Source: a virus
Strand: one strand, 5' to 3'
Length of the DNA stretch: 64,000 nucleotides
Virus record (IMG/VR): IMGVR_UViG_3300045988_160394
Coordinates: 192,001-256,000 of that record
Under the pieces are notes generated by a model. That model saw only the letters and a program-made list of their open reading frames with translations. It had not been told where the DNA came from and did not search any database. Of this stretch, positions 34,922-63,507 are shown in pieces (the stretch's first letter is position 1; each line of letters begins with the position of its first letter). Made by a program: the position numbers and the translations under genes.

Positions 34922-34922
34922 T

Positions 34923-39781: not shown

Positions 39782-39824
39782 TATTCAAATTCCTCCTCAA
39801 AGAATCTTATTTTCTATTTTTTTT

Positions 39825-39847: not shown

Positions 39848-39896
39848 TTTCTATTTTTTATTATATAAAAGATATACCAATAATTTTCACAATTGA

Positions 39897-41360: not shown

Positions 41361-41456
41361 TCCTTGTATTTAATTTCTTTTTAATGATTTCTTATTTTAG
41401 TATATTCATACATTTGAAAATATTATCTTTTCGTTGCTTTTATTATATTAAAGAGA

Positions 41457-45030: not shown

Positions 45031-45055
45031 GTTATCACCTGTCTTTCATATTTAA

Positions 45056-46334: not shown

Positions 46335-46399
46335 TATTAACAGCTCCTTTCATATAAAAGTATATTAGCGATGATATAATAGAATACCATCGCTAATTA

Positions 46400-49300
46400 C
46401 TATCTACTAAATCCACCTCTTCTACCAAAACCTCCAGAACGAGAACCTCAACCACTACTCCTTCCACCAAATCTATTAGACATAGCTTTAGCTGATCTAT
46501 AATCCATATCAACCTCTACTCATGTTTGTCTATCTCCAGGTAAATCATCTCAATCATTATTAGCATAAAAATCAGATATTCTAGAGTCTGTATTAATTCT
46601 ATTAACAGAAGTAGCATACATTCCTGCTCCACCCATTTGTTTATTAGATATATGGAAGTCTGAAGTAGTTTTTATATCTTCAACGACACCTGTTAGTTCT
46701 TTAAATTCCATAACCATTGCTAAGTGAGCTAAACCTAAAGCGTCGACAAAGTGTTCGTTTTCTGATGTATATTGAGGTATACCTGCTTTAGACATTTGAA
46801 CAACTTCGTAATCTGTTAATTGTTTAGCTAATACATCGTCGTAAGGAGATAATATAATTCTATCTCTTTCAAAAGCTATTTGTAGTTGGTTAACCATAAA
46901 TGGTTTAAAAGGTTTGCTATCTAATTCTTTAGTTATAGGGTCCATTATTTGAAGCTTAGTAGAAAAGTTACACTTCTTAACTTTAGCTTTTAATCCTGTT
47001 TGTGGATTTTCATCACCTATGATATGCAAGCGTTCTATTTGATATTCTCCTGCTCCTGCATCACAATATATTCAGCTAGGATTATATAGAGCATTTAATT
47101 CAACTATTAAATTAACAGCTGCATCATAAGAATATTCACTTCTAGGAACTTCTACTCTTTTTAATACTTTAAATTTATTAAAGTTTACATCATAATCTAA
47201 TATTAAAATAGAAGATGAAGCTCCATATTTATCTCAGTCAACCCCCATAGTTCTAAAAACATTTCTAGGAGGAGGATTTGTTCTGTCATACAATTCCATG
47301 AAGGGGTATAATCCTGTTTCTTGTAGTTTTTCTTTTTGGAAATAATCTAATTCATTATAAGCATAATTATAAAACTTTTGAGCAGCATCTAATTTATTCT
47401 TATCAAATACCCCTGTTTCTTGTGTACCGAACTCAGCTAAAACTTCATGCACATAACCTTCAGCTGTTAATTGAGCTTTAAGTTCTGCTTCCATTTGAGC
47501 ATTCCAGTTAGGGTTATGTGTAGATGGATGATAATGTTGAGAATATCCCATACTCTTATCTGTACACATTTGATAGAACTTACTACGTTTACCTAAAGGT
47601 GTAGATGAAACTGTTATACCTATTTCAGGTCTCTCTATAGCAACAGCAGCAACAACTTCGAAACAATATTCACTCATGAAGTCAACCTCATCTATGAATA
47701 TCCAGTCTGCTTTTTGTCCTCTTATAGAAGCTGCATCATCACCAGTAGTAAATCCTAGTATCATAGATCCGTTAGCAAATTCTATTTTTGCAGGGTTCTT
47801 TGTAGAAGCAACTACTGTTTGTTTTAATAATGGAGATTCTGCTATTAACTCATTTAATCTTGTAAACATGTTTCTGATTTGGTTTTCATATGGAGCAGCC
47901 ATAAGTATTCTAAAGTTCTTATTACTACTAGCCATATATAACATCTCAACTACCATTGTTTCAGTATTATGAGTTATAAAGTCTTCTGCTACAAAGTTCA
48001 TTGTTAATGGTATAGATAAATTATATGTTTGCATCTCTCCTAAGGATTGTATTGAAACTATTTCATCAAAGATAAATTCACCATCTGCAAAAGCTTTTAA
48101 ATCTTCATTATCTAATACATTAGCGAATTCTTTTAATCTACTCCTTTGGATATCATAATTCATTCTTAATCTAACATTAGGATTTGTTTTACACAAATCA
48201 GCTTTAGATAATCCTTGTTTAATTCTATCTTCTTCTACGAATTCTAATATCTCTTTTGGTAGATAAGTATCGTATTTATTATTTATTAAAGCTAATTCAT
48301 AAGCTTCTTTCATAACTTTCTCTTTAGAGAAAATACCAATCTCTTTATAGAACTTAATAACGTTTATAGAATCTGTTATTAAAAGCTGATAACAAACTTT
48401 AATTGTTCCATTATATTTATTTTTCTTAGTTACAACATAGCTATTAATTCCAAACTTTAATAATAAATGTTGTATATCAGAAATAAGTTCTCTTGATACA
48501 GAACTATATCCTATTTGTTGTTTATTATTTCTAGCATATGCTCAACCATCTGTAGCGTATAATCTAGATAAGAATAAAGCTGTATCGTTTTTACTTAATT
48601 TAAATATATCTTTAGGAACGAATTTAGTATGAGATGTTTTCCCAAACAATTCGTGCTTTTCTAAAATCTCTTTAATATTGTTAGGATAGATTCTATTATT
48701 CCTGTTATGTTTTTTTACAATATTATAATCTATGTTTCTATTGCTTTTATATTGTACTAATTCACAGTCAAAATAGTTAACTGCTCTTTCTAATTCACTT
48801 CTTATCTCTTCAGAAGCTGTACAGAATCTAATAGCCTTTGTAGAGCAATTACCGTCACCAATCATGTAAGCTAATAGTTTTATTTCATTTTCGCTCATGT
48901 AGTGATTACCGAAATATCCTAAGTTACCAGCTAATGCTACTCTATCTCCTGGTTTTAAGAAATCTATTGCTTGTCATCCTTTAGCAGTAAATAATGGGTG
49001 ATTTCCCGTAGCATCTATGTGCCTACCTGACTTTGTAGTAACTCTAAAGACTTCTTTAATTCCGTTATCTGTTATTTCATTAGTAAAGTGAGGACTCATC
49101 TTATAATCATCTGTCATAGTTACAAAATGAGCTCGACCTTGTTTATATAACTCTTCTGCTGTTACTCTTTCTCCTGTTTTAGGATTAAATACTCTAGTAT
49201 GACCAGGGATACATTTCCCTATACGTCTTCCACATCTATATACTTTTCTAACACTTTTGTCTCTTAACATTTCAACTTGATATCATCTAGCTGTTCAAGG

Positions 49301-49411
49301 CACGTATTCTTTTTTTCTAGGATCGAAAGTTTTTAAAAAAGCTTGAGACCATAATATAGGGTCATCCATAATTTCTTTAAGCTTCTTGGACTGAGCTCTA
49401 TTTATTGCCAC
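46400..49411 (-). CDS. terL: terminase large subunit interrupted by an intein, 1003 codons (about 587-aa extein), 9 in-frame TGA, GTG start
   Basis: Fragments 48974..49270, 48542..48898, 47234..48313 and 46550..47029, plus the linkers and a C-terminal extension, are all co-framed (triplet-scanned). RBS AAGGAGTG precedes GTG 49409-49411; stop is TAG 46400-46402. Motifs: PWTARWYQVEML (both W are TGA); Walker A CGRRIGK|...|T, split by the intein; Walker B ADWIFIDEVDF; nuclease-domain MGVDWDKYG (W is TGA). Confidence 0.9.
47966..49213 (-). mobile_element. intein (416 aa) with a LAGLIDADG homing-endonuclease domain, inserted in the TerL P-loop
   Basis: It starts with Cys right after the Walker-A Lys (RRIGK/CIPGHTRVF). 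Hint block B is TGNHPLFT. LAGLIDADG motifs are LLAYMIGDGN and FLSRLYATDGW. It ends FVAEDFITHN, followed by Thr, which restores GKT. It carries its own in-frame TGAs (48974, 48542). Confidence 0.85.
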
Positions 49412-49434
49412 TGTTTTCACTCCTTACATGTTGA

Positions 49435-50076
49435 TTAGAAAAATAAGTCAAAAGGTTCATCATCAAATTCTAATAATATTTCTCTTTTGTATGTTCTTTC
49501 ATCTAAATACTTTTTAAATTCTTCTATTTCTGATTCATTATATGCTTCACTAGCTTTTGCTATATATCTAGTAATATAACAACTGCTACATAACTCTTTA
49601 GTTAATGGAGTTGTTCCTGCTATTGATATACTAACTTCTTCATTATTTGCTCATATAGTACTTAGTTTGAAAAATGATAGTAAATCATCAAAAGCTCTTC
49701 TAGAAAAATAAGGCTCGTCGACTTTTAAATGTTTTAATCTTAATCCTCTAGCGTCTCCTCTTTCTATTTCGTTAATACTTTTTATATACAATGTATTATC
49801 ATTAATAATAACTTTGTCATTTACTAATTCATATTCGCAATCTAAAGCAGAGCATATTTCTTTAATAGTTTGTAAGATATGTTTTTTTTGTGCTACATAA
49901 CTGCAACAGAATAACACATCAGATTCATTGTTCGCTTGCATATCTCTTACTGTTGATAAACATAAAGCAGATGTTTTTCCAACTCTTCTACTTCCTAATA
50001 ATATTTTTATTTTAGAATTGTTATCATATATAAAATTTCTAATAGTATCTTTACTTAAAATATCCATTACATTCAT
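49435..50076 (-). CDS. P-loop NTPase resembling a terminase ATPase domain, 213 aa, 1 in-frame TGA (49651)
   Basis: Walker A LLGSRRVGKTS (compare TerL CGRRIGKT) and Walker B LKHLKVDEPYF. AAAGGAGA lies 10 nt before the ATG at 50076; the track start at 50145 overlaps the upstream gene. The frame stays open 71 codons past the TGA to TAA 49435-49437. Confidence 0.65.
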
Positions 50077-50116
50077 TATTTTAATATCTCCTTTATTATC
50101 CTGTTTTTTATTTTTA

Positions 50117-51157
50117 CTATATGCGATGCATATATTGAGCTTCATTCCCCATAATTGATTGTTGTAAATTGTATTGTGACATCTTAGCTAATTCCATACC
50201 AGCTTGTCTCATTGTAGCTAATTGTCGAGTATCATGAAATTCAGCTTCTCCAAATGTTTGAAATCTTTGAGAACTATTCATTTCTCTAGTTACTTTTTGT
50301 AATGAGTCTACACTACTAACGACCATAGAAGGTAACTGTTTAGCTAACATTACAGGGAATGCTGCTCCTTGAAGAACCTCTCCCGTTACGAACATGGCCC
50401 CCGCTTTAGCAGCTGATTTAACAACACCATTACCTTGATTTCTAGCATCTTTATAATCAGAGATAGCCACACCAGTGTTTATTATTACTCCGACGCTTCT
50501 TTTATTAAATATCTTTTTAAATACAGATTCTTCTAGTTTATCTTCTGCTTCATTCATTCCTTCTTTAGTTACATCTTCTATAACTTCTTTAGTTTCTTCT
50601 TTTATCTTTTCCTTAACTTTCTTTTTAGTTTGTTTTTTACTTTCTTTTTCTGCTTCTTTTCTAAAAACAACATTATGCTCTTTATCATATTCTTTTGTAA
50701 ATTTATTTATTTCAGAATCGACATCAAACAATTCTTCAGGCTTACTATATTTAATCCTTTCTCCTTCGTAATCATAAAACAGTCCTTCATTTTCAGAAAG
50801 GAATCTTTTCATACTTTCAAGATCTTCATTACTTTCTATTACGCCACTTCTTCTTGCTCTATTAATAGCACCTTGTGCGTCAAAATAATCAGTATCTTCT
50901 CCTAATATATTGTTTATCTTTTCATACAAAGGATTGCCTTTAAGATTATTTAATTCATTATGTTCTAATAAAGAAGCTCGTTTCTCATTTATAGCTTTTT
51001 CTCTGTCTTTAAGCATCTTTTCATAAGCTTGATCTTCTTGTCTAGCATTTTTTCTCTTATCATTTTTTCTATGTCTTCTTTTCCATTTAGAATAAGATAG
51101 CTTACCTCCACCAGCTACATACTCTTCATACAAGGCTTTTAATTCTTCTTCATTCAT
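50117..51157 (-). CDS. hypothetical protein, 346 aa (charged, K/E-rich centre)
   Basis: Intact ORF. Its ATG overlaps the upstream TAG region. TAG stop. Confidence 0.6.
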   Translation of the reverse strand: MNEEELKALYEEYVAGGGKLSYSKWKRRHRKNDKRKNARQEDQAYEKMLKDREKAINEKRASLLEHNELNNLKGNPLYEKINNILGEDTDYFDAQGAINRARRSGVIESNEDLESMKRFLSENEGLFYDYEGERIKYSKPEELFDVDSEINKFTKEYDKEHNVVFRKEAEKESKKQTKKKVKEKIKEETKEVIEDVTKEGMNEAEDKLEESVFKKIFNKRSVGVIINTGVAISDYKDARNQGNGVVKSAAKAGAMFVTGEVLQGAAFPVMLAKQLPSMVVSSVDSLQKVTREMNSSQRFQTFGEAEFHDTRQLATMRQAGMELAKMSQYNLQQSIMGNEAQYMHRI

Positions 51158-51158
51158 A

Positions 51159-51836
51159 CTACATCATTCCTCCATGTCTTAAATTGTTTAAAGCAAATAC
51201 TAAATCACCAGTAGCTCCACCGTCTTGTGCATAAGCAGGAACTCTTGGAGCGGAAGTAGTAACTTGACCATCAGGATTTATTCCTTTTCTATCTTCTATA
51301 AATTGTTTAGCTGCATCAGGAGTTCCTATAATAGCCATACCTGCACCTGCTAATAAAACACCTCTTTTAGTAGCTTTATATCCTACTAAACTTTCTTCAT
51401 CTTTTCTTATAAGCTGTAATGGGTTTTTGACCTTATGGCCGTCAACGATATTATAGTCTCTTGATATAGTATCAAAAACAGCAGCTCCATTATTTACGAA
51501 CTGTTTTCCTCTTCTACTTAAATCATCTAAGAATAAAGGCTTTCTACTAATACCAACTTTACCTACAATATTATAAGAAGAATCATCAGATAATATTGTT
51601 GTGCTTGTTTTCCCTATTCCTCTTTTAACAGCTCTTTTTACAGAACCATCTTTTATTTTGCCAATAAAGTCTTTCCCCATATGAATTCCTTTATCAGCGG
51701 CCCCAGCTCCTCCTTCAATTAATCCAGGAACATGTTTAAAGATTTTATTAGTAATCTTACCTACTTTAGCAGCGATACCAATAGATACATCATTAATGTT
51801 ACCCATAAGTTTATTTACTCTACCTAATAACGACAT
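51159..51836 (-). CDS. hypothetical Gly-rich protein, 225 aa
   Basis: Intact ORF with RBS AAGGAGTTGA and a TAG stop. Confidence 0.6.
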   Translation of the reverse strand: MSLLGRVNKLMGNINDVSIGIAAKVGKITNKIFKHVPGLIEGGAGAADKGIHMGKDFIGKIKDGSVKRAVKRGIGKTSTTILSDDSSYNIVGKVGISRKPLFLDDLSRRGKQFVNNGAAVFDTISRDYNIVDGHKVKNPLQLIRKDEESLVGYKATKRGVLLAGAGMAIIGTPDAAKQFIEDRKGINPDGQVTTSAPRVPAYAQDGGATGDLVFALNNLRHGGMM

Positions 51837-51865
51837 TTAATCAACTCCTTATGTTTATAGTAATA

Positions 51866-51889
51866 AAGTGCAGCTATTAAACTGCACTT
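51866..51889 (-). terminator. stem-loop after 51895..52344 (AAGUGCAG/CUGCACUU, 8 bp)
   Basis: Perfect 8-bp inverted repeat with an 8-nt loop, 5 nt past the TAA. The tail is AU-rich. Confidence 0.5.
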
Positions 51890-51894
51890 ATAAA

Positions 51895-52344
51895 TTAGAT
51901 AAATGGTACTCCAGGTAAATTGAAGTTACCGTATCTATCTCTATATAATCCTCCACCAGTAACAACTCTACCAGCAACTCCTACAGTAAACGCAGTTCCA
52001 GCAACTTTCTTTGCACTGATATGACCATTAACCATATGCCCCTTTTTAATAGCTTCTAAAGCAGTAGCACCAGACTCTCTTGCTTTAAAAGAATCAGTTA
52101 TCCCTTTAAATACTTTTGCATTACCAACAGCTGCTCCCATTTTATAGCTTTCTTTTTGCATAAGTTCATTAGTTAATTCATGCCCCATCTTTAAAGCTTC
52201 TCTTTTAGATTTAGTAACTCCTTGTGCTAAAATCCCTGCTGCTGATCTTTTAGCAAGTCTACTTTCAGCTTTATTACTCGCTGCTGAAAATAAACCAGCC
52301 GCAAATTCAGTCATACCTTCAGCTATTTTTCTTCCTTTACTCAT
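51895..52344 (-). CDS. hypothetical Ala/Gly/Lys-rich protein, 149 aa
   Basis: Intact ORF with RBS AGAGGTGA and a TAA stop. Confidence 0.6.
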   Translation of the reverse strand: MSKGRKIAEGMTEFAAGLFSAASNKAESRLAKRSAAGILAQGVTKSKREALKMGHELTNELMQKESYKMGAAVGNAKVFKGITDSFKARESGATALEAIKKGHMVNGHISAKKVAGTAFTVGVAGRVVTGGGLYRDRYGNFNLPGVPFI

Positions 52345-52356
52345 TTAAATCACCTC

Positions 52357-53019
52357 TTATAAATTATCTGGTCTTTCCTCTACAATAAATTCAGTACTAA
52401 TAGCATTATCAAGCATCTCATTAACAGATAAAGTATTACCTTGTTGTCCTTTTTGTGATCTTCTAGTTCCAAGCATATTATCAAGAATCTTATCTTTTCT
52501 ATTTAAACATCTTTCATATAGTTCATAAGCTTTAGATACTTCTGGTCTAGTATATTCTTCTCCTGATTCAGTCATACCTGCAACTACATCTGTTATAGGC
52601 AATTGTTCTTTAGACAATATAGCTTTACATCTTTCTAACATTACATCTATATTAATTAATTCAGCTACTAATGTTTGATCAGTAAAGCTGGCTTCGTCTA
52701 GATTGTAATCTTCCATATAATAGTTTCATCTTGTTTCTATCATGGCCGTTTCTACTGGACATTTTTCTCCTAAAGGAGCTAAATCATATTCCAATAAACC
52801 ACAAGTAGCCGCATATGGACAATCACTTTGTTTACAAACAATTGGCACTTTAGCAAATAGGCCTGTCTTAGTAGATAACATTGCCATAGCTGCTTTTTTA
52901 GCCTCTACTCCAACAACACTATGTCCTCAAAAGTTATTTGACATAGCTTGTATGAAACCTTCTTTTTTAGCTATTGCATCCTCTCTTTCTTGTAGAGAAA
53001 TCTCCTTATTTATTTCCAT
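52357..53019 (-). CDS. hypothetical Cys-motif protein, 220 aa, 2 in-frame TGA (52927, 52726); weak small-terminase candidate by position
   Basis: The ATG at 53017-19 opens MEINKEISLQERED..NNF-W-GHSVV..CKQSDCPYAATCGLLEYDLAPLGEKCPVETAMIETR-W-NYYMEDYN, running into track ORF 52357..52716 (hand-translated). TAA stop. The antisense track ORF 52742..53260 is a shadow of this gene. Confidence 0.65.
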
Positions 53020-53025
53020 AATATA

Positions 53026-53391
53026 TTACTCACCCCCTTCCCATAATTTACTATCATCATCTTTATATATTTCTTTTTCTAATTTTTCAACCATTTCTTC
53101 TGATAAGTTCGTTTCTCCATTTTTTATAGAATATTCTTCAGCAGTAAAGTTATATAAGATATTAAAATCTTCTGATCCAAATACTTCATTAAAAACCTTG
53201 ACGTTTTTTAAAACATATCTACTACTTTCTATTTTATTAATATCATCTATATATCTATGAGTTGTCATGCTACCTGTTATTAATATTTCTTCTTCTCCAT
53301 TTTCATTCTCTATTAATTTAGTTTCAAACGTAAGACGCCCTTTGACTCTCTTTAATTGTTTATCTCCTGTTACTATCTTTAGGTTCGCCAT
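53026..53391 (-). CDS. hypothetical protein, 121 aa; first gene of the minus-strand module
   Basis: Intact ORF with RBS AAGGAGGA and a TAA stop. It abuts the divergent intergenic region. Confidence 0.65.
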   Translation of the reverse strand: MANLKIVTGDKQLKRVKGRLTFETKLIENENGEEEILITGSMTTHRYIDDINKIESSRYVLKNVKVFNEVFGSEDFNILYNFTAEEYSIKNGETNLSEEMVEKLEKEIYKDDDSKLWEGGE

Positions 53392-53410
53392 AAAATTGTC
53401 CTCCTTATAT

Positions 53411-53536: not shown

Positions 53537-53689
53537 GAGCAAAATTTTTATAATTTTTCGAAGCAGTACCTAGTTATTGATAATAGATAAAAAGCTAAGA
53601 ATTTTAGCCCCAGGTCTATTAAGTTAAACAAAATAAAAATAAACGAAAGGGTCTAATGATAAAAGATTGATTAGACAGAGGTGAATAAA

Positions 53690-54028
53690 ATGGAAAACTT
53701 AAAAGAAGTAAAAGCAACAAGAGTAAACGGAAGATTAATGGCTTCAGGTAAAGTAAAGTCATTAAATGAAAAGAGAAGAGAACAAGGAGTGAATATTATG
53801 AAACAAGAACAAGTAGTAGAAGTAAAAGAAGAAAGAATAGATACATCTATGTTTGATAAATTAAGTGCTAATAAAGCAGCTTATAATAAGCACTTAGAGG
53901 ATCTAGCTTATGACAAATGGTTAGATGAACAATTCGATCAAGAAGACAAGGAAAAGAAGCTATCATATAAGATATCAAAGTTGTTTAAAATGATGGCTAG
54001 AGACTTGCAAGGAAAGAAAATAAAATAA
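53690..54028 (+). CDS. hypothetical early protein, 112 aa
   Basis: AGAGGTGA lies 5 nt before the ATG at 53690; the track start at 53681 is a GTG inside the RBS. TAA stop. No TGA. Confidence 0.65.
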   Translation: MENLKEVKATRVNGRLMASGKVKSLNEKRREQGVNIMKQEQVVEVKEERIDTSMFDKLSANKAAYNKHLEDLAYDKWLDEQFDQEDKEKKLSYKISKLFKMMARDLQGKKIK

Positions 54029-54050
54029 ATAAACAGTAGGAGGTAAAGTG

Positions 54051-54455
54051 ATGAAGAAATCAAACAATTATAGACATGAGTTAGAGAGGTTAAAACCATT
54101 TAATAACTTCATAGTAGAAGGTAAGGTAGAGTGTATTAGTAGTAAGTTCACTGATAGTTTCTCAGGAGGATATAAGACTAAGACTATGTTATTAACTAAT
54201 GTAGGAATAGCATTAAGATCTAAGAAAGATAAGAAACTACACATAGTTATGAGAATAGATCACATATGGATAGCAGAGGATACTAATACAATACCTAGAG
54301 ATAAAAATACAAAAATAGGAGATATAGTTAAGTTCAGAGGTAAAGTATATGAGTATAAATATAGTCATGGAGGTATACAATTAGGCATTAAACAGAGCAT
54401 GAAAGGACATGTGAATGTAACCAAAGGAATAAGCTATAAAATATTGTATAAATAA
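54051..54455 (+). CDS. hypothetical early protein, 134 aa
   Basis: AGGAGG lies 7 nt before the ATG at 54051. TAA stop. Confidence 0.65.
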   Translation: MKKSNNYRHELERLKPFNNFIVEGKVECISSKFTDSFSGGYKTKTMLLTNVGIALRSKKDKKLHIVMRIDHIWIAEDTNTIPRDKNTKIGDIVKFRGKVYEYKYSHGGIQLGIKQSMKGHVNVTKGISYKILYK

Positions 54456-54466
54456 TATAGATTATG

Positions 54467-54493
54467 CCTATATATGCATTACGTATATATAGG
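54467..54493 (+). promoter_or_regulatory. 11-bp AT-rich hairpin CCUAUAUAUGC-AUUAC-GUAUAUAUAGG between early genes
   Basis: Inverted repeat seen directly (one G-U pair). Both arms contain the CCTATATA core of the 14-nt repeat at 53411/53523. It could be a terminator, an operator or a hairpin promoter. Confidence 0.45.
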
Positions 54494-54576
54494 TATAAAT
54501 GTGTATTATTCATACACTATGCACAGAGTATGTGGCATTATGGTCAACGAACCGCCCGCTCAATGGAGGTGCAATT

Positions 54577-56835
54577 ATGTCAAATTTAAACAACGTATTA
54601 GGGAACAACAATAATGTAGAAGGAGGAAGCAATATGAAAAAAGTAGTAATCAAAGCTACAAACAACAATAGCAGAAAGGCTGCTAAAATGAACAAGGAGT
54701 TACATGATGTAATGGCTAAGAGATTTATGAAACAAAATCTATATAACTGGGCTCCAGTTATCAGAATGATTACTATAACAGGAGTAGATGATTTAGAAAA
54801 CTTAGTGTTTGATATGTACAATACTATAGGAGGTAACAGCCCTGTAATGAGAGAGTTCGTTAAAAGAAATGGATCCGTTACAGAAGGGGAGGTAGATGTC
54901 GTTCAAGTATTACCAGATGGAAGAAAAACAACTAGAAAGGTTGTTTGTGGAGAAGTTAAAGGTAAGATGAGACATGATTATGTGGAGGATATATTCCTTA
55001 TCCAATTTAAGGATTTAGAAAAGAATTTTAAAGGTATAACTAAGAAAGAAAAGAAAGAAGCTAGTGAATTATTAGTTGCTTCCGTTCTTGATAATGGATT
55101 ATCCATAGTAACAGATGTTAATGGATATCCTGCTGTTAGAATAAAAGGCCAAGAGATGGAAGGAGATGTAGTTAATAAAACTATTTCACCATTCATATGG
55201 ACACCTTCAAACGAAAGAAATGGTCAAATACTAATGACTAGTATAGACCATAATGAAGCTTGGGACATATTAGAGACTGTTGGTGGAAGAACAGTTAGCA
55301 AGCTATTAGAAAAAGGAGAAGAGATGCCAATAGCTAAATTCAAGAAGTTAGCTTCAAGAATAGGTTTATTCGCAACTCCAGCTATTAAGTTCGGAAAAAT
55401 AGGTACAGCTAAACATGGCCTATTATTAATAAACAGGACCATAGCTGGTGCTGATGATTTTGATAAAATTGCTAAGGAAGTGTTAGACTCTGTAGGAGTT
55501 GAAATAGATGATAACCAATATGATGGAGCTGTTTGGTTCTCAGCAGAATGGTTATCAGATTGTTTCAAAGAAAATGGATTTAACATTTCACCAGCTCAAG
55601 CCATCTGGTTTTCAGCTCAGCTAAGAGTCAATAAGATATATGCTAAAGTATTTGGAGAAGCATTTATTCAAGAGCTAGTTAATGTAATGGCTCACAAATT
55701 AATTGAAAACTTAGTAGAAGGTAGAGATTATACTATCATAGGTAATAGAGACAATATCTCAATGATACTAGATAGTAATGGTGCTAAGTTATTGGATTTA
55801 AACTTAAAAGATAAATGTGATGTTTATCTATTAGATATAGCTAAAGGCACACAATCAGGTACAGCCATACAAATGACAGATAAAATGGCTGTAAAAGATA
55901 AAGAAGCTACTTGCAACTTCTTATACAAAAGAGGTATAGAAGAATGTCACAATTATGTAAATGCTATAGGTGATACAACTAAATCATTAGTAGAAGATGA
56001 TATAAATGTATCAGAGTACTTAATAAATGTTGCAAAACATAATGGAGGAGCAATTGCTTCTAAAGTATTCTCTGATCAATATATCGTATCAGGTATATTA
56101 AGAGATGCAACTAAGAAACATGAAGCTGCTTATAGAAGAGGTAGAGTAGAATTAAACTCACTATTCCAAAGAGCTTTATTTGATAATACTTATGTATTTA
56201 CTAGTGGTAAATTAGACTCAGTATTAAGAGTTGATAGTAGAGGTGCTATAGAATGCTATTCAACTGATGTTTTAGAATTAAATAGAGAAGTAATAGATGC
56301 TATAGAAAATGATAATACATTAAATGATTATGAGAAGGATATGAAATTAAGAGAAGTATTATCTGCTTGTATTATTAAATACCCTACTCCGGGTACAGAG
56401 GAAATAGAACTTGTAGTCTTCTTAACAGAGAAACAAATAAATAGAAGACTACAAGGTTATGTGAAATCAGGTATGATAACTAAAGAAGAAGCTTTAGTTC
56501 TATATAAATATTTTGTATACTCATCATACGGTACAATAAAAATAGCTGCTGATAATAGTGTAAAACACAAATTAGCAGGATTTGATACAGATTACGACGG
56601 ATTCGCAGTCGTATTCGAAAAAGAATTGGTCACTATAATAGAAGGAGTGTATGTTGAAAGAACTGAATCATTCCAAGAATCAACAGGTTCAATAGCTACA
56701 CATGGTGGTGTTACTCCATTTATTGATTGTGGACATGATGCTAAGAACTATATAGAGCTAAATAATAAAAATGTTAATATGAAAGATAAATCAGTACAGG
56801 ACGAAATAAGTATTTGGAATAACTTATTCGAGTAG
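54577..56835 (+). CDS. single-subunit two-barrel RNA polymerase (YonO / QDE-1 / crAss gp66-like class), about 752 aa
   Basis: Beta-like motif FGKIGTAKHG (about 55390-55419; compare GDKxAGRHGNKG). Beta-prime/RdRP-like motif KYPTPGTEEIELVVF...KLAGFDTDYDGFAVVFEKEL (DTDYD at 56584-56598; compare NADFDGD / DxDGD). Start chosen at the ATG with GGAGGTG 5 nt upstream; an alternative is ATG 54634 after GAAGGAGGA. TAG stop. All 7 Trp codons are TGG. Confidence 0.75.
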   Translation: MSNLNNVLGNNNNVEGGSNMKKVVIKATNNNSRKAAKMNKELHDVMAKRFMKQNLYNWAPVIRMITITGVDDLENLVFDMYNTIGGNSPVMREFVKRNGSVTEGEVDVVQVLPDGRKTTRKVVCGEVKGKMRHDYVEDIFLIQFKDLEKNFKGITKKEKKEASELLVASVLDNGLSIVTDVNGYPAVRIKGQEMEGDVVNKTISPFIWTPSNERNGQILMTSIDHNEAWDILETVGGRTVSKLLEKGEEMPIAKFKKLASRIGLFATPAIKFGKIGTAKHGLLLINRTIAGADDFDKIAKEVLDSVGVEIDDNQYDGAVWFSAEWLSDCFKENGFNISPAQAIWFSAQLRVNKIYAKVFGEAFIQELVNVMAHKLIENLVEGRDYTIIGNRDNISMILDSNGAKLLDLNLKDKCDVYLLDIAKGTQSGTAIQMTDKMAVKDKEATCNFLYKRGIEECHNYVNAIGDTTKSLVEDDINVSEYLINVAKHNGGAIASKVFSDQYIVSGILRDATKKHEAAYRRGRVELNSLFQRALFDNTYVFTSGKLDSVLRVDSRGAIECYSTDVLELNREVIDAIENDNTLNDYEKDMKLREVLSACIIKYPTPGTEEIELVVFLTEKQINRRLQGYVKSGMITKEEALVLYKYFVYSSYGTIKIAADNSVKHKLAGFDTDYDGFAVVFEKELVTIIEGVYVERTESFQESTGSIATHGGVTPFIDCGHDAKNYIELNNKNVNMKDKSVQDEISIWNNLFE

Positions 56836-56864
56836 TATTGATTGAGTAATTGTGTAATAGGTTC

Positions 56865-56891
56865 GGTGAGTGTATACCTTTAAAACTCACC
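56865..56891 (+). terminator. stem-loop after the RNAP gene (GGUGAGU/ACUCACC, 7 bp)
   Basis: Perfect 7-bp inverted repeat with a 13-nt loop, followed by AUUUAAAUU. Confidence 0.4.
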
Positions 56892-56967
56892 ATTTAAATT
56901 AAAATATAAAAATAAAAGATAAAAAATTAAGGAAATCTTCAAAGAGTGAAGATATTAGGAGGAAACA

Positions 56968-58818
56968 ATGATGAAAATATTATTAAACAACAACAACAAT
57001 GGAGCAAATACTTTAATGGAGGCTGTTTCAAACGAAATGATGAAAATAACAGAAGCATCTAAGTTTAATGTTGCTAATGGTGTAGCAGGATTATATAACA
57101 GTGAAAAGAGAATAGATAAGAGAATGTTAGATTATTTAACAAAAGTAGATACTAGAAAGCTAGATAACATACAAAGAGCTTTCGCAGTAACATCTTTTGC
57201 GACAGGTTCAATGGTAGGTATAACTACTATTGGTATAGAAGCAGCTTTAACTTTAGCTACTTCAACTTATCAATATTTAGATAAAGATGGGAAGGTAAAT
57301 GCTAAGAAAGTTGAAAGAGTTGTTAAGAACATAGGTGAAAAGCCAGAAGCTGGATATAGATATGTATCAGTGTTTAATTACAATGTAAACAAGGCTTTAG
57401 CTATATCTAAGTTCAGCAGAGCTTCAATATTTATAAGAGTATCTGCTCATGAAATAAAAGAGTTCCAAAAGAGAATAAGAAAGATTGATATGACAGCTAT
57501 CCAACCAGAAGATCTTGTTACAATAGCATATGACATGGATATCATAGGTAGAGCTCTTCAAGAGTTATCTATAGACGTTACTAAGGATAAATCAAAAGAT
57601 ATTGGTTATGATATCAATTCATTAATCAATATGACTAATAAAACAAAGTCTAACATTATTAAGAATACAGTTGTTAAAAACAACATAGAAGATATAATAT
57701 CAGAAAAGATATTTAAAGGAACAGTTTCTAAAAAATACTCAATGGAAGCTATAATAGATGGTAAACCAATGAGTGAAGTAGATGTTAATGATAAAGATGA
57801 ATTAAATAGTGCTTACATCGATAATTTAGGTGGAGATTGTAAAGACGCTATAAATGCTGGTTACATGAAAGGATTCGAGCCTATTGTTGAGTTATTAAAA
57901 GTAAGCAATAATGATGCTTACCAAGTATTCAAGAACAGAGTAGTAACAGCTTCTCAAAACTCTAACCAAAAGGATGTTATTATGAATCAAATAATAACTG
58001 CTGCTAGAGTTGCTATGGATATCATTAATAATCTATATGGTAAGAAGCAATATGACAATACTATAACAAGCAGCTATATCAAAGAAGTTGCTGCTAAATT
58101 AAGAAATGCTATATACACTGTAGGAGCTAAATATGGAGTAGATCCAGTTAACACAGTTAAGATAGCTATGTCAGCTCCATTTGCTAAAATAGTTAACGGA
58201 GAATTAAAAGTAAAAGAAAGACCAACTAGCTTAAGAGCTATATTAGACATCTTCCCAAAAGAATTTGTAGTAGAATATGTATGTAATCCATATGATACAG
58301 AACAAAGCAAAAGAGAAGTAGCTGAATCAGCTTGTTACTTAACTGTTACATTCTCTGATTATGATTTATGCTTAGGAGATGAATTAGATTTCGAAGATAG
58401 TTTATCTATGACTGAGTATGGTATGGTTTCAATTAAAGAAAAATTCTCAGGTAAAGCTGTTGTTACAGAAGAAGGATTAAAAGCTGTTGTTGATATATAC
58501 GCATTTGAATATACTGATGCTGTATTCTTAAGTGAAATATATACAAATAACGAACAAAGTTTTAATGCTCCATTTGTACAACCAGTTTGCTTTACAAAAA
58601 ATAGTGATGAATCTAATATAGAAACATCAATAGAAATGAACGCTATAAGAGAGAAAATAGACACTTGCTTAGACGCAGGTACTAACGGTGTTCTATTATG
58701 TGTAAAAACAAAAGAGGGGAACTTATCAAAGATAGGTAGATTAGCTTTCCCTTATCAAGGAAAAATTAGAATAAAAGATTATATAATAAATACATCTTGT
58801 GGAGTTGTATTATTATAA
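56968..58818 (+). CDS. hypothetical early protein, 616 aa (contains no Trp)
   Basis: Intact ORF with AGGAGG 5 nt upstream and a TAA stop. It lies immediately downstream of the RNAP gene, so an accessory role is possible but unsupported. Confidence 0.7.
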   Translation: MMKILLNNNNNGANTLMEAVSNEMMKITEASKFNVANGVAGLYNSEKRIDKRMLDYLTKVDTRKLDNIQRAFAVTSFATGSMVGITTIGIEAALTLATSTYQYLDKDGKVNAKKVERVVKNIGEKPEAGYRYVSVFNYNVNKALAISKFSRASIFIRVSAHEIKEFQKRIRKIDMTAIQPEDLVTIAYDMDIIGRALQELSIDVTKDKSKDIGYDINSLINMTNKTKSNIIKNTVVKNNIEDIISEKIFKGTVSKKYSMEAIIDGKPMSEVDVNDKDELNSAYIDNLGGDCKDAINAGYMKGFEPIVELLKVSNNDAYQVFKNRVVTASQNSNQKDVIMNQIITAARVAMDIINNLYGKKQYDNTITSSYIKEVAAKLRNAIYTVGAKYGVDPVNTVKIAMSAPFAKIVNGELKVKERPTSLRAILDIFPKEFVVEYVCNPYDTEQSKREVAESACYLTVTFSDYDLCLGDELDFEDSLSMTEYGMVSIKEKFSGKAVVTEEGLKAVVDIYAFEYTDAVFLSEIYTNNEQSFNAPFVQPVCFTKNSDESNIETSIEMNAIREKIDTCLDAGTNGVLLCVKTKEGNLSKIGRLAFPYQGKIRIKDYIINTSCGVVLL

Positions 58819-58916
58819 GATAAAGATAAGGCATGACTTACATAGTTGTGCCTTTTATTATACTCAAAGATATAAAATAAGAATGCAAAGAAAATAATAA
58901 AGTGAGGTAAAGAAAG

Positions 58917-60080
58917 ATGAAAAAGATAGCAATAGAAATAATGGAAAGACAATTACAAGAAAGAAAGGAAGCTGCAACTAGTATTATAAACAACACAATA
59001 GAAGCATTAAAAGTATTAGGACAAGAAGAGTTATTATCTTCAAATGTAGTAGAAGTAGAGAAAGAAAAAATAGTAGAAGTTAAAGTTCCAGTTGAAGTAG
59101 ATAAGAGTGAATTAGAAGCTTTAAAAGTAAAAAATGCAGAAGCTGAAGCTATTATCAAATCATTAAAGAAAGAATTAGCTAATGAAAAGAGAAAGGCTAC
59201 TAACAGTAACAAGAGAGTAGATAAATTAAAAGAACAAGTTTCTGAATTAAAATCAGATGTTAAAGGTTTATCTAAGATAGCTGATAAAAATAAAGAGCTT
59301 GTAGAAGAGAATAAATACTTAAAAGATATGATTACAAAATTAGAAGCTAAATTAAACATGAAAACAAATGCTGAATTTAAAGTACCAGTGAAGAATAAAG
59401 AAACAGTTAAGAAGCAAACTCCTGTTCAAATTAATAGCGATTTGAAAATTTATTCAAACAATAACATAAGTATATTAGCTCAATATAAAAATGTTATATT
59501 TGAAGCTTCTAAAAGAATGGATGCAATAACCATATATGATCCAAGTATGTACGGTATGAAAGAAGAAATAAAAGCTGCACTAGAATCAGCTAAATTATTT
59601 ACTCAAGCTAGAGATGTAAAAGACCATGACAGAATAGAAACTGAAATAGGTTCATGTCATGCTATATCTAAGACTAAGTATATGGGATTCGTTATGGATA
59701 ACGGTAAAGCTATTTGTTATGTATACGAACCAAGTAAATATGATACAGCTAAAGCTATTTTAATAAACAAAAGATTAAATAACACTAGTATTAAATATGA
59801 ACCAGCTACAGAATCTCAACAAGCTCTTATTAACAATTTAGTAGCTCAACATGTAGCTGCTAATAATAAGAGAATGGAGCAACTTTCTCAAGATGCATAT
59901 ACTGGTTTAGGGTTAGATTTCTTAGATGGAAATAATAATCAACAAACAGTTAGTAATAGTGCTCCTAGTGTTAGCTTAAACTTTACAAAACAACCTGAAC
60001 AAACTGCACCTTCAACTAATAGTCCTGAAGAGGATATGATGGCTGAATTTGCTAGAATGTTAGATGGTTTAAATGCATAA
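58917..60080 (+). CDS. hypothetical protein with an N-terminal coiled coil, 387 aa
   Basis: Intact ORF with RBS GTGAGGT and a TAA stop. The antisense track ORF 58838..59359 is a shadow. Confidence 0.7.
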   Translation: MKKIAIEIMERQLQERKEAATSIINNTIEALKVLGQEELLSSNVVEVEKEKIVEVKVPVEVDKSELEALKVKNAEAEAIIKSLKKELANEKRKATNSNKRVDKLKEQVSELKSDVKGLSKIADKNKELVEENKYLKDMITKLEAKLNMKTNAEFKVPVKNKETVKKQTPVQINSDLKIYSNNNISILAQYKNVIFEASKRMDAITIYDPSMYGMKEEIKAALESAKLFTQARDVKDHDRIETEIGSCHAISKTKYMGFVMDNGKAICYVYEPSKYDTAKAILINKRLNNTSIKYEPATESQQALINNLVAQHVAANNKRMEQLSQDAYTGLGLDFLDGNNNQQTVSNSAPSVSLNFTKQPEQTAPSTNSPEEDMMAEFARMLDGLNA

Positions 60081-60400
60081 GCGTTACCTTTCCCCTGCGG
60101 GGGTAGTTTCTCACGTTAAGCCCTACGGGTTTGAGTTAAAAGTAACTACCTTCGGTTATCGAGAAATTAGAAATATTTCTTTCTATGACAAGTTAGCTCC
60201 GCTTCGCTACGCTAACTGTTAGAAAGAAGAAAACTCGCTTCGCTCGTAAGAAATAGAGCGTTTTGTGAGTATTCGTGAGAAGAGTGCTTCTCTTTGGTGG
60301 GTAAAACCACCAACGGTTGTACTTAGCTCTACGAGTGCCATAAGAAATCATAAAAGAAATAGTACTTCTTTTTGATTATAAACTAAATCAATTATATTAA
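60081..60400 (+). ncRNA. candidate structured non-coding RNA in a GC-enriched intergenic region (about 320 nt)
   Basis: No ORF here, and the region is visibly more G+C-rich than its flanks. Helices verified by hand: 60092-95/60100-103 (CCCC-UGCG-GGGG); 60177-85/60220-28 (9 bp) enclosing 60192-97/60211-16 (6 bp); 60241-45/60256-60; 60277-82/60287-92; 60296-300/60307-311. A 9-nt repeat CGCTTCGCT occurs at 60200 and 60236. Strand assumed from the flanking genes. Confidence 0.5.
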
Positions 60401-60419
60401 ATTAAAGGAGGTATTCACA

Positions 60420-60902
60420 ATGAATACAAATACAACTATCAAGAAAAGAATATTTACTATGGCTATGAGAGGCAACACTGCTATCTTAACAGACAGTAGT
60501 AATCCTCAATCTACTATCTCATTTAAAGGAGAAAACTTATCTATTATTGGCTTACAACTATTAAATAAGCTATTAGAAAGTATGCCAACTCAAAGATTAA
60601 ACTATAAAGTAGCAGTATTATTACCACATACTGTAGTTATTCCTACATTCGAAAATACTAGAAATGCATGGATTGCTAATGGTAAAACTAAGACTGGTAA
60701 TGATATAGAACCTGCTAAGCTTCATGAAGTTATTAGACTTAATGAGCTATTAAGAGTTAAAGGTCATAACGTAGAAATCTTTGACCAAAGCAAACTAACT
60801 AGTGTAATGTATAAATCATTTACTAGAAAGACATGGGAGCTTATGGATAAGATAGTACCAAAAGCAGAGGCAGAAGATTGCAATGCATTTATGGTTCAAT
60901 AA
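60420..60902 (+). CDS. hypothetical early protein, 160 aa (paralog of 62578..63420)
   Basis: AAGGAGG lies 8 nt upstream. TAA stop. Shares NGKTKTG / TGKTKSG and flanking blocks with 62578..63420. Confidence 0.7.
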   Translation: MNTNTTIKKRIFTMAMRGNTAILTDSSNPQSTISFKGENLSIIGLQLLNKLLESMPTQRLNYKVAVLLPHTVVIPTFENTRNAWIANGKTKTGNDIEPAKLHEVIRLNELLRVKGHNVEIFDQSKLTSVMYKSFTRKTWELMDKIVPKAEAEDCNAFMVQ

Positions 60903-60933
60903 TATTATTATGAGTCAGTGAAATATCTGGCTC

Positions 60934-60992
60934 TTTCTGTCGTGGAAGATACAGTCCACCTGATGATGGCTATTAGGTAGCCGAAACAGAAA
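60934..60992 (+). ncRNA. hammerhead ribozyme, type III topology (HH1); predicted cleavage after C60941
   Basis: Stem III is open: 60934-40 pairs with 60986-92 (7 bp, including A15.1-U16.1 and C15.2-G16.2). GUC triplet at 60939-41. Stem I is GUGG/CCAC with a 10-nt loop. Core CUGAUGA at 60960-66, then one extra U. Stem II is GGCUA-UUAGG-UAGCC with G10.1-C11.1. GAAA at 60983-86. Confidence 0.85.
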
Positions 60993-61018
60993 TATTATTA
61001 CATTATGAGGTGATTGAT

Positions 61019-61441
61019 ATGAAAATATTTATACCAGCTTACGAAGGAATATCTGGATTATATACTGTAGAAGAAATAAGAGAAGGAGAAAACTTCTATT
61101 ATGATAATGGATCTATGGTAAACATATATGACAACTATTTTATTGTTATCAATAACAATGGAATAATCGAGTACGAAAGTGATGAAGGATTATACAGCAT
61201 ATTTGTTATGTGTTCTGATGAAGAAATAAAATTCTTAGAACAATTTACAGATATAGGATCTAAAAAGATTTTAGAGAGAATGTTAGAGCGTAGAATGTAT
61301 TACGCTAATCTTAAAAAATCTGTAGATGGTAAAACATGTCCTGTATGTGGAAAGAAACTATCCGAATCTAATATAGATGCTGGAATAAGAAATCTATTCT
61401 GCAATAATTGTAAGCATAGTGAAACTATTTGCATAGATTAG
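61019..61441 (+). CDS. hypothetical small protein with a C-terminal zinc-ribbon (CPVCG...CNNCKH), 140 aa
   Basis: GAGGTGA lies 5 nt before the ATG at 61019. The final G of its TAG stop is part of the downstream hammerhead. Confidence 0.7.
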   Translation: MKIFIPAYEGISGLYTVEEIREGENFYYDNGSMVNIYDNYFIVINNNGIIEYESDEGLYSIFVMCSDEEIKFLEQFTDIGSKKILERMLERRMYYANLKKSVDGKTCPVCGKKLSESNIDAGIRNLFCNNCKHSETICID

Positions 61442-61501
61442 TCGAAACGGTAGAAATACCGTCGTACAGGGATGGCTTCCTGTGCCTGATGATGACAAGC
61501 C
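61441..61501 (+). ncRNA. hammerhead ribozyme, type II topology with pseudoknot (HH2); predicted cleavage after C61463
   Basis: Order along the sequence: GUC (61441-43, the stem II 3' strand) then GAA (61444-46). Stem III is ACGGUA-GAAA-UACCGU (61447-62). C17 is at 61463. Stem I is GUACAGG/CCUGUGC (61464-70 / 61479-85). CUGAUGA at 61486-92, extra U, then GAC (61494-96), which pairs with GUC. AAGCC (61497-501) pairs with loop-I GGCUU (61474-78). Confidence 0.85.
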
Positions 61502-61535
61502 AAACTATATTTGAATTTAAAGGAGATTGATTGAT

Positions 61536-62093
61536 ATGAAAACAAAATTCACATTAAAAGGATTAGAAATAGGAAACATTAAGATAGGAGATATCGTTGT
61601 TGAAGGCGAATACTTTGTTAAAGAGGCATGGGGTATGAAAAACCTAATTAAAGGAACAGTTGAAGATTTGTTACACAACATGCCAAAATATCTTGATCAA
61701 GTATCTACAATAAACAACAAGTACGAAGAACTATCTAGAAAAGAATTCTTAAAGAAAGTAGACCATATTCGTACTAGAATTAATGGAGCTAAAACTATAG
61801 AAGAATTAGATAGTATCTGTAAATGCTATTACGAAATATGTCCATTTAGTATGCATAGTGAAATAGATGCTCTTCATAACCAAAGATATCATGAGTTAAG
61901 AAGATATTCTGATGATGAAATTAAAGAGCTAAAAAAAGAAATAGAGTCTTCAGGTACAATTACAGGTATTGCAAGACTTATCAATATTGTTAAGAGTGAA
62001 GTTATTCCTGATAAATATAGAGACGAATTGTTAGCTATGGTTGACAGGAAACACTCAGAAATATTATTTAAATATACAACAAGTATGAATTAG
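61536..62093 (+). CDS. hypothetical small protein, 185 aa
   Basis: AGGAG lies 10 nt before the ATG at 61536, in the conserved leader AAAGGAGATTGATTGATATG. The TAG stop abuts HH3. Confidence 0.7.
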   Translation: MKTKFTLKGLEIGNIKIGDIVVEGEYFVKEAWGMKNLIKGTVEDLLHNMPKYLDQVSTINNKYEELSRKEFLKKVDHIRTRINGAKTIEELDSICKCYYEICPFSMHSEIDALHNQRYHELRRYSDDEIKELKKEIESSGTITGIARLINIVKSEVIPDKYRDELLAMVDRKHSEILFKYTTSMN

Positions 62094-62158
62094 TCGAAAC
62101 GGTATAGAAATATGCCGTCGTGTAGAGATAGCCTACTACACCTGATGATGACAGGCTA
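62093..62158 (+). ncRNA. hammerhead ribozyme, type II topology with pseudoknot (HH3); predicted cleavage after C62119
   Basis: Same architecture as HH2, with compensatory changes. Stem III is ACGGUAUA-GAAA-UAUGCCGU (8 bp). Stem I is GUGUAG/CUACAC. CUGAUGA at 62142-48, extra U, GAC at 62150-52. AGGCUA (62153-58) pairs with loop-I UAGCCU (62129-34). Confidence 0.85.
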
Positions 62159-62191
62159 AATAATATTTTAATTTAAAGGAGATTGATTAAT

Positions 62192-62452
62192 ATGACAAAT
62201 TGGAAAATTACAAAAATAACAACAGGAGTAGCAACTGAAGAAGAGGTAAAAGGATGGGAAGAAATAGAAAATGATGACATCTGTCCTGTATGTGGATCAA
62301 AAATGATTGATGATGAAGAAGAACAATTATTACAACATACTGAATGTCCTATATGTGGTTACTTTGAAAACATCTACGGTAATGCTATAGATTTCTATGG
62401 TAAAGAATGTTTCGAAGAAAAGAAAAAAGAAATAGGTCTTTTAAATGAATAA
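62192..62452 (+). CDS. hypothetical small zinc-ribbon protein (CPVCG...CPICG), 86 aa
   Basis: Leader AAAGGAGATTGATTAATATG. TAA stop, followed by a short hairpin. Confidence 0.7.
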   Translation: MTNWKITKITTGVATEEEVKGWEEIENDDICPVCGSKMIDDEEEQLLQHTECPICGYFENIYGNAIDFYGKECFEEKKKEIGLLNE

Positions 62453-62455
62453 TTA

Positions 62456-62476
62456 GGGAGTTCTCTCCCTTCTTCT
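62456..62476 (+). terminator. short hairpin GGGAG-UUCU-CUCCC followed by UUCUUCU
   Basis: Seen directly, 3 nt after the TAA. A weak terminator candidate. Confidence 0.4.
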
Positions 62477-62577
62477 AATGTAGCCAATGACGGTCACAAG
62501 CCCGTATAAGAAATACAGAGTGGAAGAAAATAATATTATGGGTTAAGCTTCCCTAAAAAGCATAGGAGGAAACAATT

Positions 62578-63420: not shown

Positions 63421-63433
63421 TTAATAGCTAATA

Positions 63434-63465
63434 AAGCCTCTATTAATATAGGGGCTTCTTTATAT
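63434..63465 (+). terminator. rho-independent terminator (AAGCCUCU/AGGGGCUU, 8 bp, then a U-rich tail)
   Basis: 8-bp stem with one G-U pair and an 8-nt loop, followed by CUUUAUAUUAU. Confidence 0.65.
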
Positions 63466-63507
63466 TATCAAAAATAAAATTATAAGAAGAAAAAGGAGAC
63501 GATTGAA

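Follow-up and report, generated by a model that had tools for sequence, protein, structure and literature searches.

A putative two-subunit, naturally split RNA polymerase of the RdRP/QDE-1/YonO branch in a tailed-phage genome

The window analysed here, 64,000 nt long (positions 192,001 to 256,000 of the IMG/VR virus record IMGVR_UViG_3300045988_160394), contains a gene for a protein of 752 amino acids (aa) that the initial annotation had read from its motifs as a compact, single-subunit, two-barrel RNA polymerase (RNAP). The next open reading frame (ORF) downstream, of 616 aa, was mentioned as a possible cofactor. Is the 752-aa protein a polymerase of this kind and, if so, is it a whole enzyme or a part of one? 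Polymerases of the YonO class, which are like RNA-dependent RNA polymerases (RdRPs), are believed to be similar to the single-chain ancestor that all cellular RNAPs share, and to our knowledge very few of them have been studied. The structural model and sequence comparisons described below identify the 752-aa protein as a very diverged two-barrel polymerase of the RdRP/QDE-1, YonO and gp66 class, and it is probable, at roughly 0.6, that the two genes together encode a two-subunit, naturally split RNAP of the RdRP/QDE-1/YonO branch. The protein does not represent a new class: it is related, with great divergence, to the known YonO/RdRP-like phage RNAPs; what is new with respect to these is the split form.

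Fold, catalytic residues and relatives of the 752-aa protein

The AlphaFold model of the 752-aa protein, computed from an alignment of 29 homologues (A1), has a predicted local distance difference test score of 79 and a predicted template modelling score (pTM) of 0.76, with the last ~50 residues disordered. When the model is compared with the PDB by Foldseek, the best 18 matches are two-barrel polymerases only (RDR2, QDE-1 and gp66), with expectation values (E) from 1e-10 to 7e-6. Arabidopsis and maize RDR2 range from 1.6e-10 (7eu1_M) to 7e-7, Neurospora QDE-1 (7y7p/2j7n) is matched at ~1e-9 over ~700 aligned columns and gp66 (6vr4) of phi14:2, a crAss-like phage, is a weaker match, at 7e-6. 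Bacterial and plastid beta-prime chains come next, at E ~0.1. Matches in BFVD are phage entries labelled RNA-dependent RNA polymerase, pieces of crAss polymerases and A7KVB1, whose 1218 aa equal the length of gp99 of phage 0305phi8-36. The pattern of strands around the motifs is compatible with the two double-psi beta-barrel (DPBB) domains that the initial annotation had expected a structure prediction to reveal. The chain comprises a slab-like domain at the N-terminus, barrel B (DPBB-B), a connecting part and barrel A (DPBB-A), which bears the DxDxD motif and is followed by a helix at residues 682-703.

Eight residues are common to every two-barrel polymerase: an Asp and two basic residues in barrel B and, in barrel A, the R-x-P and D-x-D-x-D motifs (Ruprich-Robert & Thuriaux 2010, PMC2919709). 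They are D709, R738, K743, R962, P964, D1007, D1009 and D1011 in QDE-1 (PMC2919709), and all eight are found in the 752-aa protein, as D316, R350, K357, K601, P603, D670, D672 and D674. In a broadened profile alignment of 176 sequences, from which the per-position counts given here are taken, they are 95-100% conserved among the 118-161 sequences that cover them. In barrel B, D316 is kept in 117/118, R350 in 115/119 and K357 in 112/118. In barrel A, K601 is kept in 159/161 (the other two have Arg), and P603 (161/161), D670 (161/161), D672 (161/161) and D674 (160/160) do not vary. The paired motif singled out in the initial annotation, KYPTPGTEEIELVVF (residues 601-615) and AGFDTDYDGFAVVFEKEL (residues 667-684), contains these last five residues and stands far above chance.

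The two basic residues of barrel B are part of a further signature, for Q348, two residues before R350, is present in 117 of 119 sequences. This Q-x-R is specific to the RdRPs of the RNA interference type, and Pol II has K979 at the position (QDE-1 structure, PMC9508822). Barrel B of the 752-aa protein thus has the RdRP-specific Q-x-R...K as opposed to the K...K of multisubunit RNAPs. AFQIRFGFTKG of gp99 and AFQIRYGGYKG of RDR2 align over this block as well, as 'FQIR....KG'. Further towards the N-terminus, the motif P210-Q217 is invariant in A1; in the broadened alignment S211 is kept in 74/83 sequences, and 81/83 have R or K at position 214.

The other motif of the initial annotation, FGKIGTAKHG, fares differently. 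Present as described at residues 272-281, it had been proposed as a beta-like catalytic loop, but K274 is kept in only 32/89 sequences, K279 in 34/87 and H280 in 18/88, and the conserved barrel-B signature, D316-G with Q348-x-R350...K357, lies 40-80 residues further on. The low conservation and this true signature rule the loop out as catalytic.

QDE-1 and RDR2 are the best structural matches across nearly the whole 752-aa chain, at ~10% sequence identity, and have in common with it the QxR...K of barrel B, the R/K-x-P gate and DxDxD. At the level of sequence the clearest comparison is with gp99 of 0305phi8-36, a Bacillus phage of the same broad lineage (the two portal proteins share 39% identity). 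Its gene has been regarded as that of a putative RdRP-family RNAP since 2007, with a transcript of its own close to the end of the genome that is believed to be the first into the cell (PMC2147016), and was called YonO-like by Iyer et al. 2021 (PMC7824862). Searched in a database of four sequences, the broadened profile gives a weak match to gp99 at E 1.2e-7 and is collinear with it over the S-x-S-x-x-R block, DG and DxDxD, and hhalign aligns the N-terminal domain at E 1.8e-4. QxR...K and, with the 616-aa protein counted in, ID..K also come in the same order in gp99. Both genes lie near the start of a non-structural arm. The two proteins differ in that gp99 is one chain of 1218 aa with a match to PF05183 (E 1.2e-18), whereas here there are chains of 752 and 616 aa and the former has no Pfam match; gp99 also has Arg in the gate loop and the metal motif D-T-D-G-D-K, against Lys and D-T-D-Y-D-G. 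Of the marks of the PF05183 family, the 752-aa protein has the Q-x-R...K signature and lacks both a profile match and a conserved trigger-loop motif on the same chain.

YonO is another phage-encoded member of the RdRP-like branch. Its motif order, too, is collinear with that of the broadened profile, the domains being non-significant. Taken together, the Foldseek matches, the universal residues and the collinear alignments with gp99 and YonO bear out the class to which the protein was originally assigned.

The longest reading of the ORF (54499..56835) would give 778 aa. The sequence GGAGGT, a ribosome-binding site (RBS), lies 7 nt upstream of position 54577, and in A1 the homologues begin M-x-N-L-N-N at this very Met, so the start at 54577 is correct. 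A homologue search recovered 97 proteins of ~740 aa, with identities down to 36%, on contigs of up to 266 kb, and 180 relatives scored E≤0.001 when a profile was run against 1.8 billion cluster representatives. Nothing meaningful was found for the protein and its neighbours in Pfam and PHROGs, nor any match for 38 distant relatives in the same two databases or for 7 further relatives in Pfam. Searches of PDB sequences with phmmer and with a profile, and a tblastn search of 50,697 phage records, found no match to the 752-aa protein. By sequence, then, it founds a family with no match in Pfam, PHROGs or the PDB, and a large one, with 180 cluster representatives, to which searches of these databases are blind. 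Among 185,579 species-representative genomes there is a single match, on a 79 kb contig (JAVWCU010000001.1; here L019) of a metagenome-assembled genome labelled 'Bacilli bacterium'. It has a split pair of 726 and 692 aa and also the third gene described below; the assignment of this contig to a Bacilli bin is a weak hint at the class of the host.

The 616-aa neighbour, a probable second half of the enzyme

The 752-aa chain stops 78 residues past D674. In QDE-1 the bridge helix (L1082-R1091) and the trigger loop (1102-1136) lie 71-125 residues past the last catalytic Asp and are needed for activity (PMC9508822). QDE-1 and RDR2, enzymes of RNA silencing, are single chains of 1100-1400 aa that carry both elements on the same chain, ~70-125 residues past the triad. 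A chain that ends where the 752-aa protein does is therefore unlikely to be a compact, single-subunit enzyme.

The downstream gene offers a possible remedy. A profile (A3) built solely from stand-alone proteins of the 616-aa family was searched against the distant relatives of the 752-aa protein, and matched the C-terminal halves of 14-15 long homologues (1274-1724 aa). In every case the part like the 752-aa protein comes first and the part like the 616-aa protein second. The best of these, P0106 (E 3e-80; the others range from 1e-19 to 1e-4), has the former at residues 15-751, with AGMDTDFD at 691, and the latter at 776-1397, in an ORF that is uninterrupted under the standard code (table 11). 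Another, P0138, has Bro-N, ANT and pRha genes around it, a phage context. No fusion of any other neighbour to the polymerase was seen among the relatives examined. As the neighbour is fused to polymerases of this family in 14-15 homologues, it is likely to be the other half of the enzyme. The initial annotation was right to suspect a functional link, but a loose cofactor is not what the fusions suggest, and its claim of a compact single subunit is probably wrong. Its description of the 616-aa ORF as Trp-free is accurate, with no Trp codon of either kind.

The two genes also occur as a syntenic pair, the large before the small, elsewhere: at L001 (40% and 36% identity), at L006-L011 (32%) and at L019 (30%). 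The short type is common, 88 of 147 cluster representatives ending <130 aa past DxDxD. Two loci at 25-29% identity, L012 (9461..12673) and L013, both from IMG/VR, have single ORFs of ~1070-1100 aa and no adjacent gene like that of the 616-aa protein. Fused, split and intermediate-length architectures thus coexist in the superfamily. Read-through joining the two ORFs of the window was considered and rejected; although both are in one frame, six in-frame stops, of all three kinds, stand in the 132 nt between them.

The most invariant block of A3, Q198-E-L-x-I202-D203-x-x-K206-D-K-S-K, stands at the end of a 20-residue helix. In QDE-1 three trigger-loop residues, V1115, D1116 and K1119, contact the incoming nucleoside triphosphate (NTP) at its base, 3'-OH and gamma-phosphate (PMC9508822). 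The 752-aa chain has no conserved copy of the trigger-loop motif, (A/S)-(V/I)-D-x-x-K-(T)-G, and I-D-V-T-K is on the 616-aa protein. Intermediate steps are provided by single-chain relatives, which carry LQELTIDSVKTG (P0213, P0237) or LQEMTIDAAKTG (P0182) ~140-200 residues past DxDxD, and by gp99, which carries MQGWSIDFAKTG, aligned by HMMER to LHSRAVDFAKTG of RDR2. Because this chain of motifs leads to V1115, D1116 and K1119 of QDE-1, residues I202, D203 and K206 of the partner may well be the trigger-loop contacts to the NTP.

The core of other phage enzymes is organized in different ways. In phiKZ and AR9 the two-barrel catalytic core is divided among several genes, and there are virion and non-virion sets of polymerase. 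These are enzymes of the multisubunit (beta/beta-prime) clade, in which each barrel has a chain to itself, whereas here a single chain has both barrels and the division comes after barrel A. The gp66 type of phi14:2 is a module in a giant (>2000 aa) virion protein whose gene stands among structural genes, whereas the present protein has 752 aa and is encoded in a non-structural arm free of TGA codons. The existence of fused and split forms of one enzyme, cut just past barrel A, amounts to a natural experiment. If the partner does hold the bridge-helix and trigger-loop module, this could be added or withheld in trans, and its contribution to catalysis and fidelity could be tested in a minimal two-barrel enzyme.

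Table 1. Coordinates in the window of the putative polymerase genes, their motifs and nearby features
Feature	Position	Strand	Basis or context
Putative large (N-terminal) subunit, 752 aa	54577..56835	+	ORF, RBS, family alignment A1, AlphaFold model, Foldseek
P210-S-N-E-R-N-G-Q217, N-terminal-domain motif of S-x-S-x-x-R type	55204..55227	+	gp99 SASQTRVGK, YonO SAGQIRTKK
FGKIGTAKHG, poorly conserved strand-turn	55390..55419	+	Beta-like loop proposed in the initial annotation
D316-G317, barrel-B Asp (QDE-1 D709, Rpb2 D837)	55522..55527	+	Aligned to 'DG' of gp99 and YonO; PMC2919709
Q348-L-R350-V-N-K-I-Y-A-K357, barrel-B product-binding residues (QDE-1 Q736, R738, K743)	55618..55647	+	RdRP-type QxR...K
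K601-Y-P603, 'Pro-gate' R-x-P loop of barrel A, Lys for Arg	56377..56385	+	QDE-1 R962-x-P964
D670-T-D672-Y-D674, catalytic metal-binding triad	56584..56598	+	Aligned to gp99 GGADTDGDK and YonO FDNDGDK
Putative small (C-terminal) subunit, 616 aa, Trp-free, own AGGAGG RBS	56968..58818	+	Family A3, fused relatives, synteny
I202-D203-V-T-K206, proposed trigger-loop NTP-contact motif	57571..57585	+	QDE-1 V1115-D1116-x-x-K1119, RDR2 AVDFAKTG
Third conserved gene, 387 aa, coiled coil and C-terminal domain, Trp-free	58917..60080	+	Homologues in L001 and L017
Hairpin, 16-bp stem, AT-rich	54462..54498	+	Between stop of 135-aa ORF and polymerase RBS
Terminator-like hairpin, T-rich tail	58828..58854	+	10 nt past stop of small-subunit gene
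Giant late ORF, 2946 aa when its five in-frame TGA codons are taken as Trp	9942..18782	-	RYP...NADQDGD motif

Gene context, proposed mechanism and alternative readings

The window is AT-rich (G+C ~29%), and its gene content is that of a double-stranded DNA tailed phage. The coding strand and the GC skew switch at ~53.5 kb; the genes for the tail sheath, major head protein, portal and large terminase are all on the minus-strand arm, and on the plus-strand arm two small ORFs precede the 752-aa ORF. The ten ORFs of the plus arm (53600..64000) contain 0 in-frame TGA and 15 TGG codons, against 54 TGA and 78 TGG in the minus arm (1..53400) read with table 4. At one TGA codon of the giant ORF listed in Table 1 a homologue with 86% identity has Trp. 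The 752-aa gene therefore sits in a TGA-free arm that diverges from a recoded structural arm, and the TGA-free module described in the initial annotation holds for the portion of the plus arm that lies in the window. These 64 kb contain no gene for a tRNA and therefore none for a suppressor tRNA.

Hairpins bracket the two genes, which suggests that they share one transcript; as a terminator, attenuator or processing site, the upstream hairpin may control expression of the polymerase. A homologue of the third gene follows the split pair in L001 (14322..15716; E 4e-27) and the fused polymerase in L017 (4401..5429; E 2e-6), and from this conserved position it is possibly an accessory factor of the polymerase module.

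In the mechanism proposed for the pair, D316 of the large subunit would serve metal B, and Q348, R350 and K357 would hold the 3' end of the RNA; the K601-x-P603 gate loop and D670, D672 and D674, binding the catalytic Mg2+, would be the contribution of barrel A. The small subunit would assemble with it and supply the modules that follow barrel A in single-chain relatives, among them the I202/D203/K206 motif after its long helix. The bicistron stands at the head of the TGA-free arm, beside the point where it diverges from the recoded structural arm, and the pair would be made early, under the standard code, and then act as a non-virion, DNA-dependent RNAP for later (middle or late, TGA-recoded) genes. 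The role of an early-made, phage-specific transcriptase is suggested by analogy with gp64 of phage P23-45 and with YonO, which transcribes the late structural and lysis genes of SPbeta without a sigma factor (PMC5467207). On this proposal the pair is a candidate for transcribing the recoded late genes of those gut jumbo phages that recode TGA; the word 'polymerase' is absent from the text of the recoding survey.

Several observations weigh against the reading of the pair as a split transcriptase of this branch. The 752-aa protein has no Pfam match even at E≤1, PF05183 included, and the sole hhalign match to YonO is the catalytic motif, at a non-significant E of 0.38. The trigger-loop assignment rests on a short motif and its position; hhalign places A3 on gp99 in the same register, also without significance (E 0.16), and from DxDxD to the motif there would be ~280 residues in the split enzyme as against ~104 in QDE-1 and ~110 in gp99. 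A weakly conserved F-I-D-S-S-K in the disordered tail of the 752-aa chain might instead be what remains of the trigger loop. The AlphaFold model of the partner is mediocre (pTM 0.48) and finds no match in the PDB with Foldseek; its A3 profile has none among PDB sequences, and an hhalign comparison with YonO is uninformative. Sigma-70-like promoter sites are no commoner in the window than in shuffled sequence, and no k-mer is shared by the intergenic regions. Finally, early timing, a DNA template and the set of target genes are all drawn from analogy.

The first alternative is that the 752-aa protein is after all a complete, compact, single-subunit RNAP, the neighbour being no more than a cofactor for specificity or regulation that it can do without. 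This one chain does carry all eight of the universal catalytic residues, the helix at 682-703 and the weak motif of the tail do follow barrel A, the short type makes up the 88 of 147 relatives mentioned earlier, and YonO is efficient although no trigger-loop homology is reported to be detectable in it (PMC5467207). YonO, however, is a single chain of 839 aa that has 300 residues after its DNDGD, compared with 78 here. The neighbour, moreover, forms one covalent chain with the enzyme in 14 or more divergent homologues, carries the most invariant motif of its family, matching the RdRP trigger-loop signature, and is syntenic at every short-type locus that is readable (L001/L002, L006-L011 and L019). 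A self-sufficient 752-aa enzyme is thus unlikely.

A second alternative accepts the enzyme and questions its role. It would not be a transcriptase of the phage but would copy RNA templates in the manner of QDE-1 and the RDR enzymes, or make primers or regulatory or anti-defence decoy RNAs. The closest structural matches, RDR2 and QDE-1, are RNA-dependent, barrel B has the RdRP-specific QxR and not the K...K of DNA-dependent multisubunit enzymes, and QDE-1 takes both DNA and RNA templates (PMC9508822). The characterized phage members (YonO, phi14:2 gp66, and gp64 and gp96 of P23-45), on the other hand, are DNA-dependent transcriptases, a gene at the head of the early arm of a double-stranded DNA tailed phage suits a transcriptase, and the window has no sign of an RNA-templated process; we regard such a role as improbable. 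That the protein is a relic of the fold, a catalytically dead structural or regulatory protein, is scarcely credible, for although it has no sequence-level match to curated families, its metal- and substrate-binding residues are near-perfectly kept over >100 sequences sharing ~20% identity, which argues for purifying selection on catalysis.

The giant ORF and other features of the window

The initial annotation paired the 752-aa protein with a second two-barrel polymerase, the product of the giant ORF of the minus arm. This 2946-aa protein has R2331-Y-P and, after 33 residues, N2367-A-D-Q-D-G-D (2367-2373; nt 11664..11684), which resembles the RAPTLH...NADFDGD block of beta-prime. A local alignment with the corresponding window of Escherichia coli beta-prime scores 35, reached by 4 of 2000 shuffles; a looser form of the pattern has only three occurrences when the window is translated in all six frames. 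Searches of the PDB, Pfam and the phage collection found no match to the giant, a word-indexed homologue search found two near-identical proteins only, and viral and metagenome scans were empty or gave unrelated matches. An hhalign comparison with E. coli beta-prime, from a profile of two sequences, was uninformative. On the strength of its motif the giant is a candidate second, beta-prime-like two-barrel polymerase. The paralogy with the 752-aa protein that the initial annotation thought worth checking is not supported, hhalign of A1 against the C-terminal 1144 aa giving E 0.14 at a place away from the motifs, and the broadened hidden Markov model of the 752-aa family does not match the giant.

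A precedent for one phage with two single-chain-type two-barrel RNAPs, one delivered by the virion and one made early, is P23-45, which has a virion RNAP fused to the tape measure, gp96, and a non-virion RNAP, gp64; the virion polymerase transcribes the gene for the non-virion polymerase, which then takes over (PMC10770324). The two P23-45 enzymes are paralogues of each other, whereas no similarity was detected here between the giant and the 752-aa protein. No P23-45 polymerase chain is named among the 50 listed Foldseek matches of the 752-aa protein, the presence of these chains in the searched library being unchecked. With this precedent a two-polymerase picture is plausible. In its specific form, in which this jumbo-phage lineage uses two unrelated two-barrel polymerases, a virion-delivered, beta-prime-like giant with its gene among those for the tail and a split RdRP-like enzyme that has its trigger loop on a separate, Trp-free subunit and transcribes the TGA-recoded late genes, it is possible but doubtful. 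If it were true, a switch of polymerase would be coupled to a switch of genetic code, and the supply of the small subunit would be a point of regulation.

The giant has, by eye, a DnaQ-like stretch ('FVWDLETLGG...ITEFA') at its N-terminus and a hydrophobic segment, AVLGLAAGLMIGGYASG, at its C-terminus. Its gene is among those 3' of the tail sheath gene, the usual site of tape-measure or ejection proteins.

Three further table-4 ORFs of the minus strand deserve mention. The ORF at 19210..24972 (1920 aa) has 13 in-frame TGA codons, the most in the window, and no PHROG matches the largest of its standard-code pieces (22966..25575). A second giant ORF at 939..9893 (2984 aa, 7 TGA) consists of three standard-code pieces that all match phrog_20474 (an 'endolysin' profile of 1954 positions), and its product may be a tail lysin or a tape-measure-like protein. 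The third, at 46400..49369 (989 aa, 9 TGA), encloses the terminase match at 47234..48313. In the relative L001 (2340..4365) a LAGLIDADG homing-endonuclease gene adjoins a short N-terminal piece of the terminase, which suggests that the terminase gene is interrupted.

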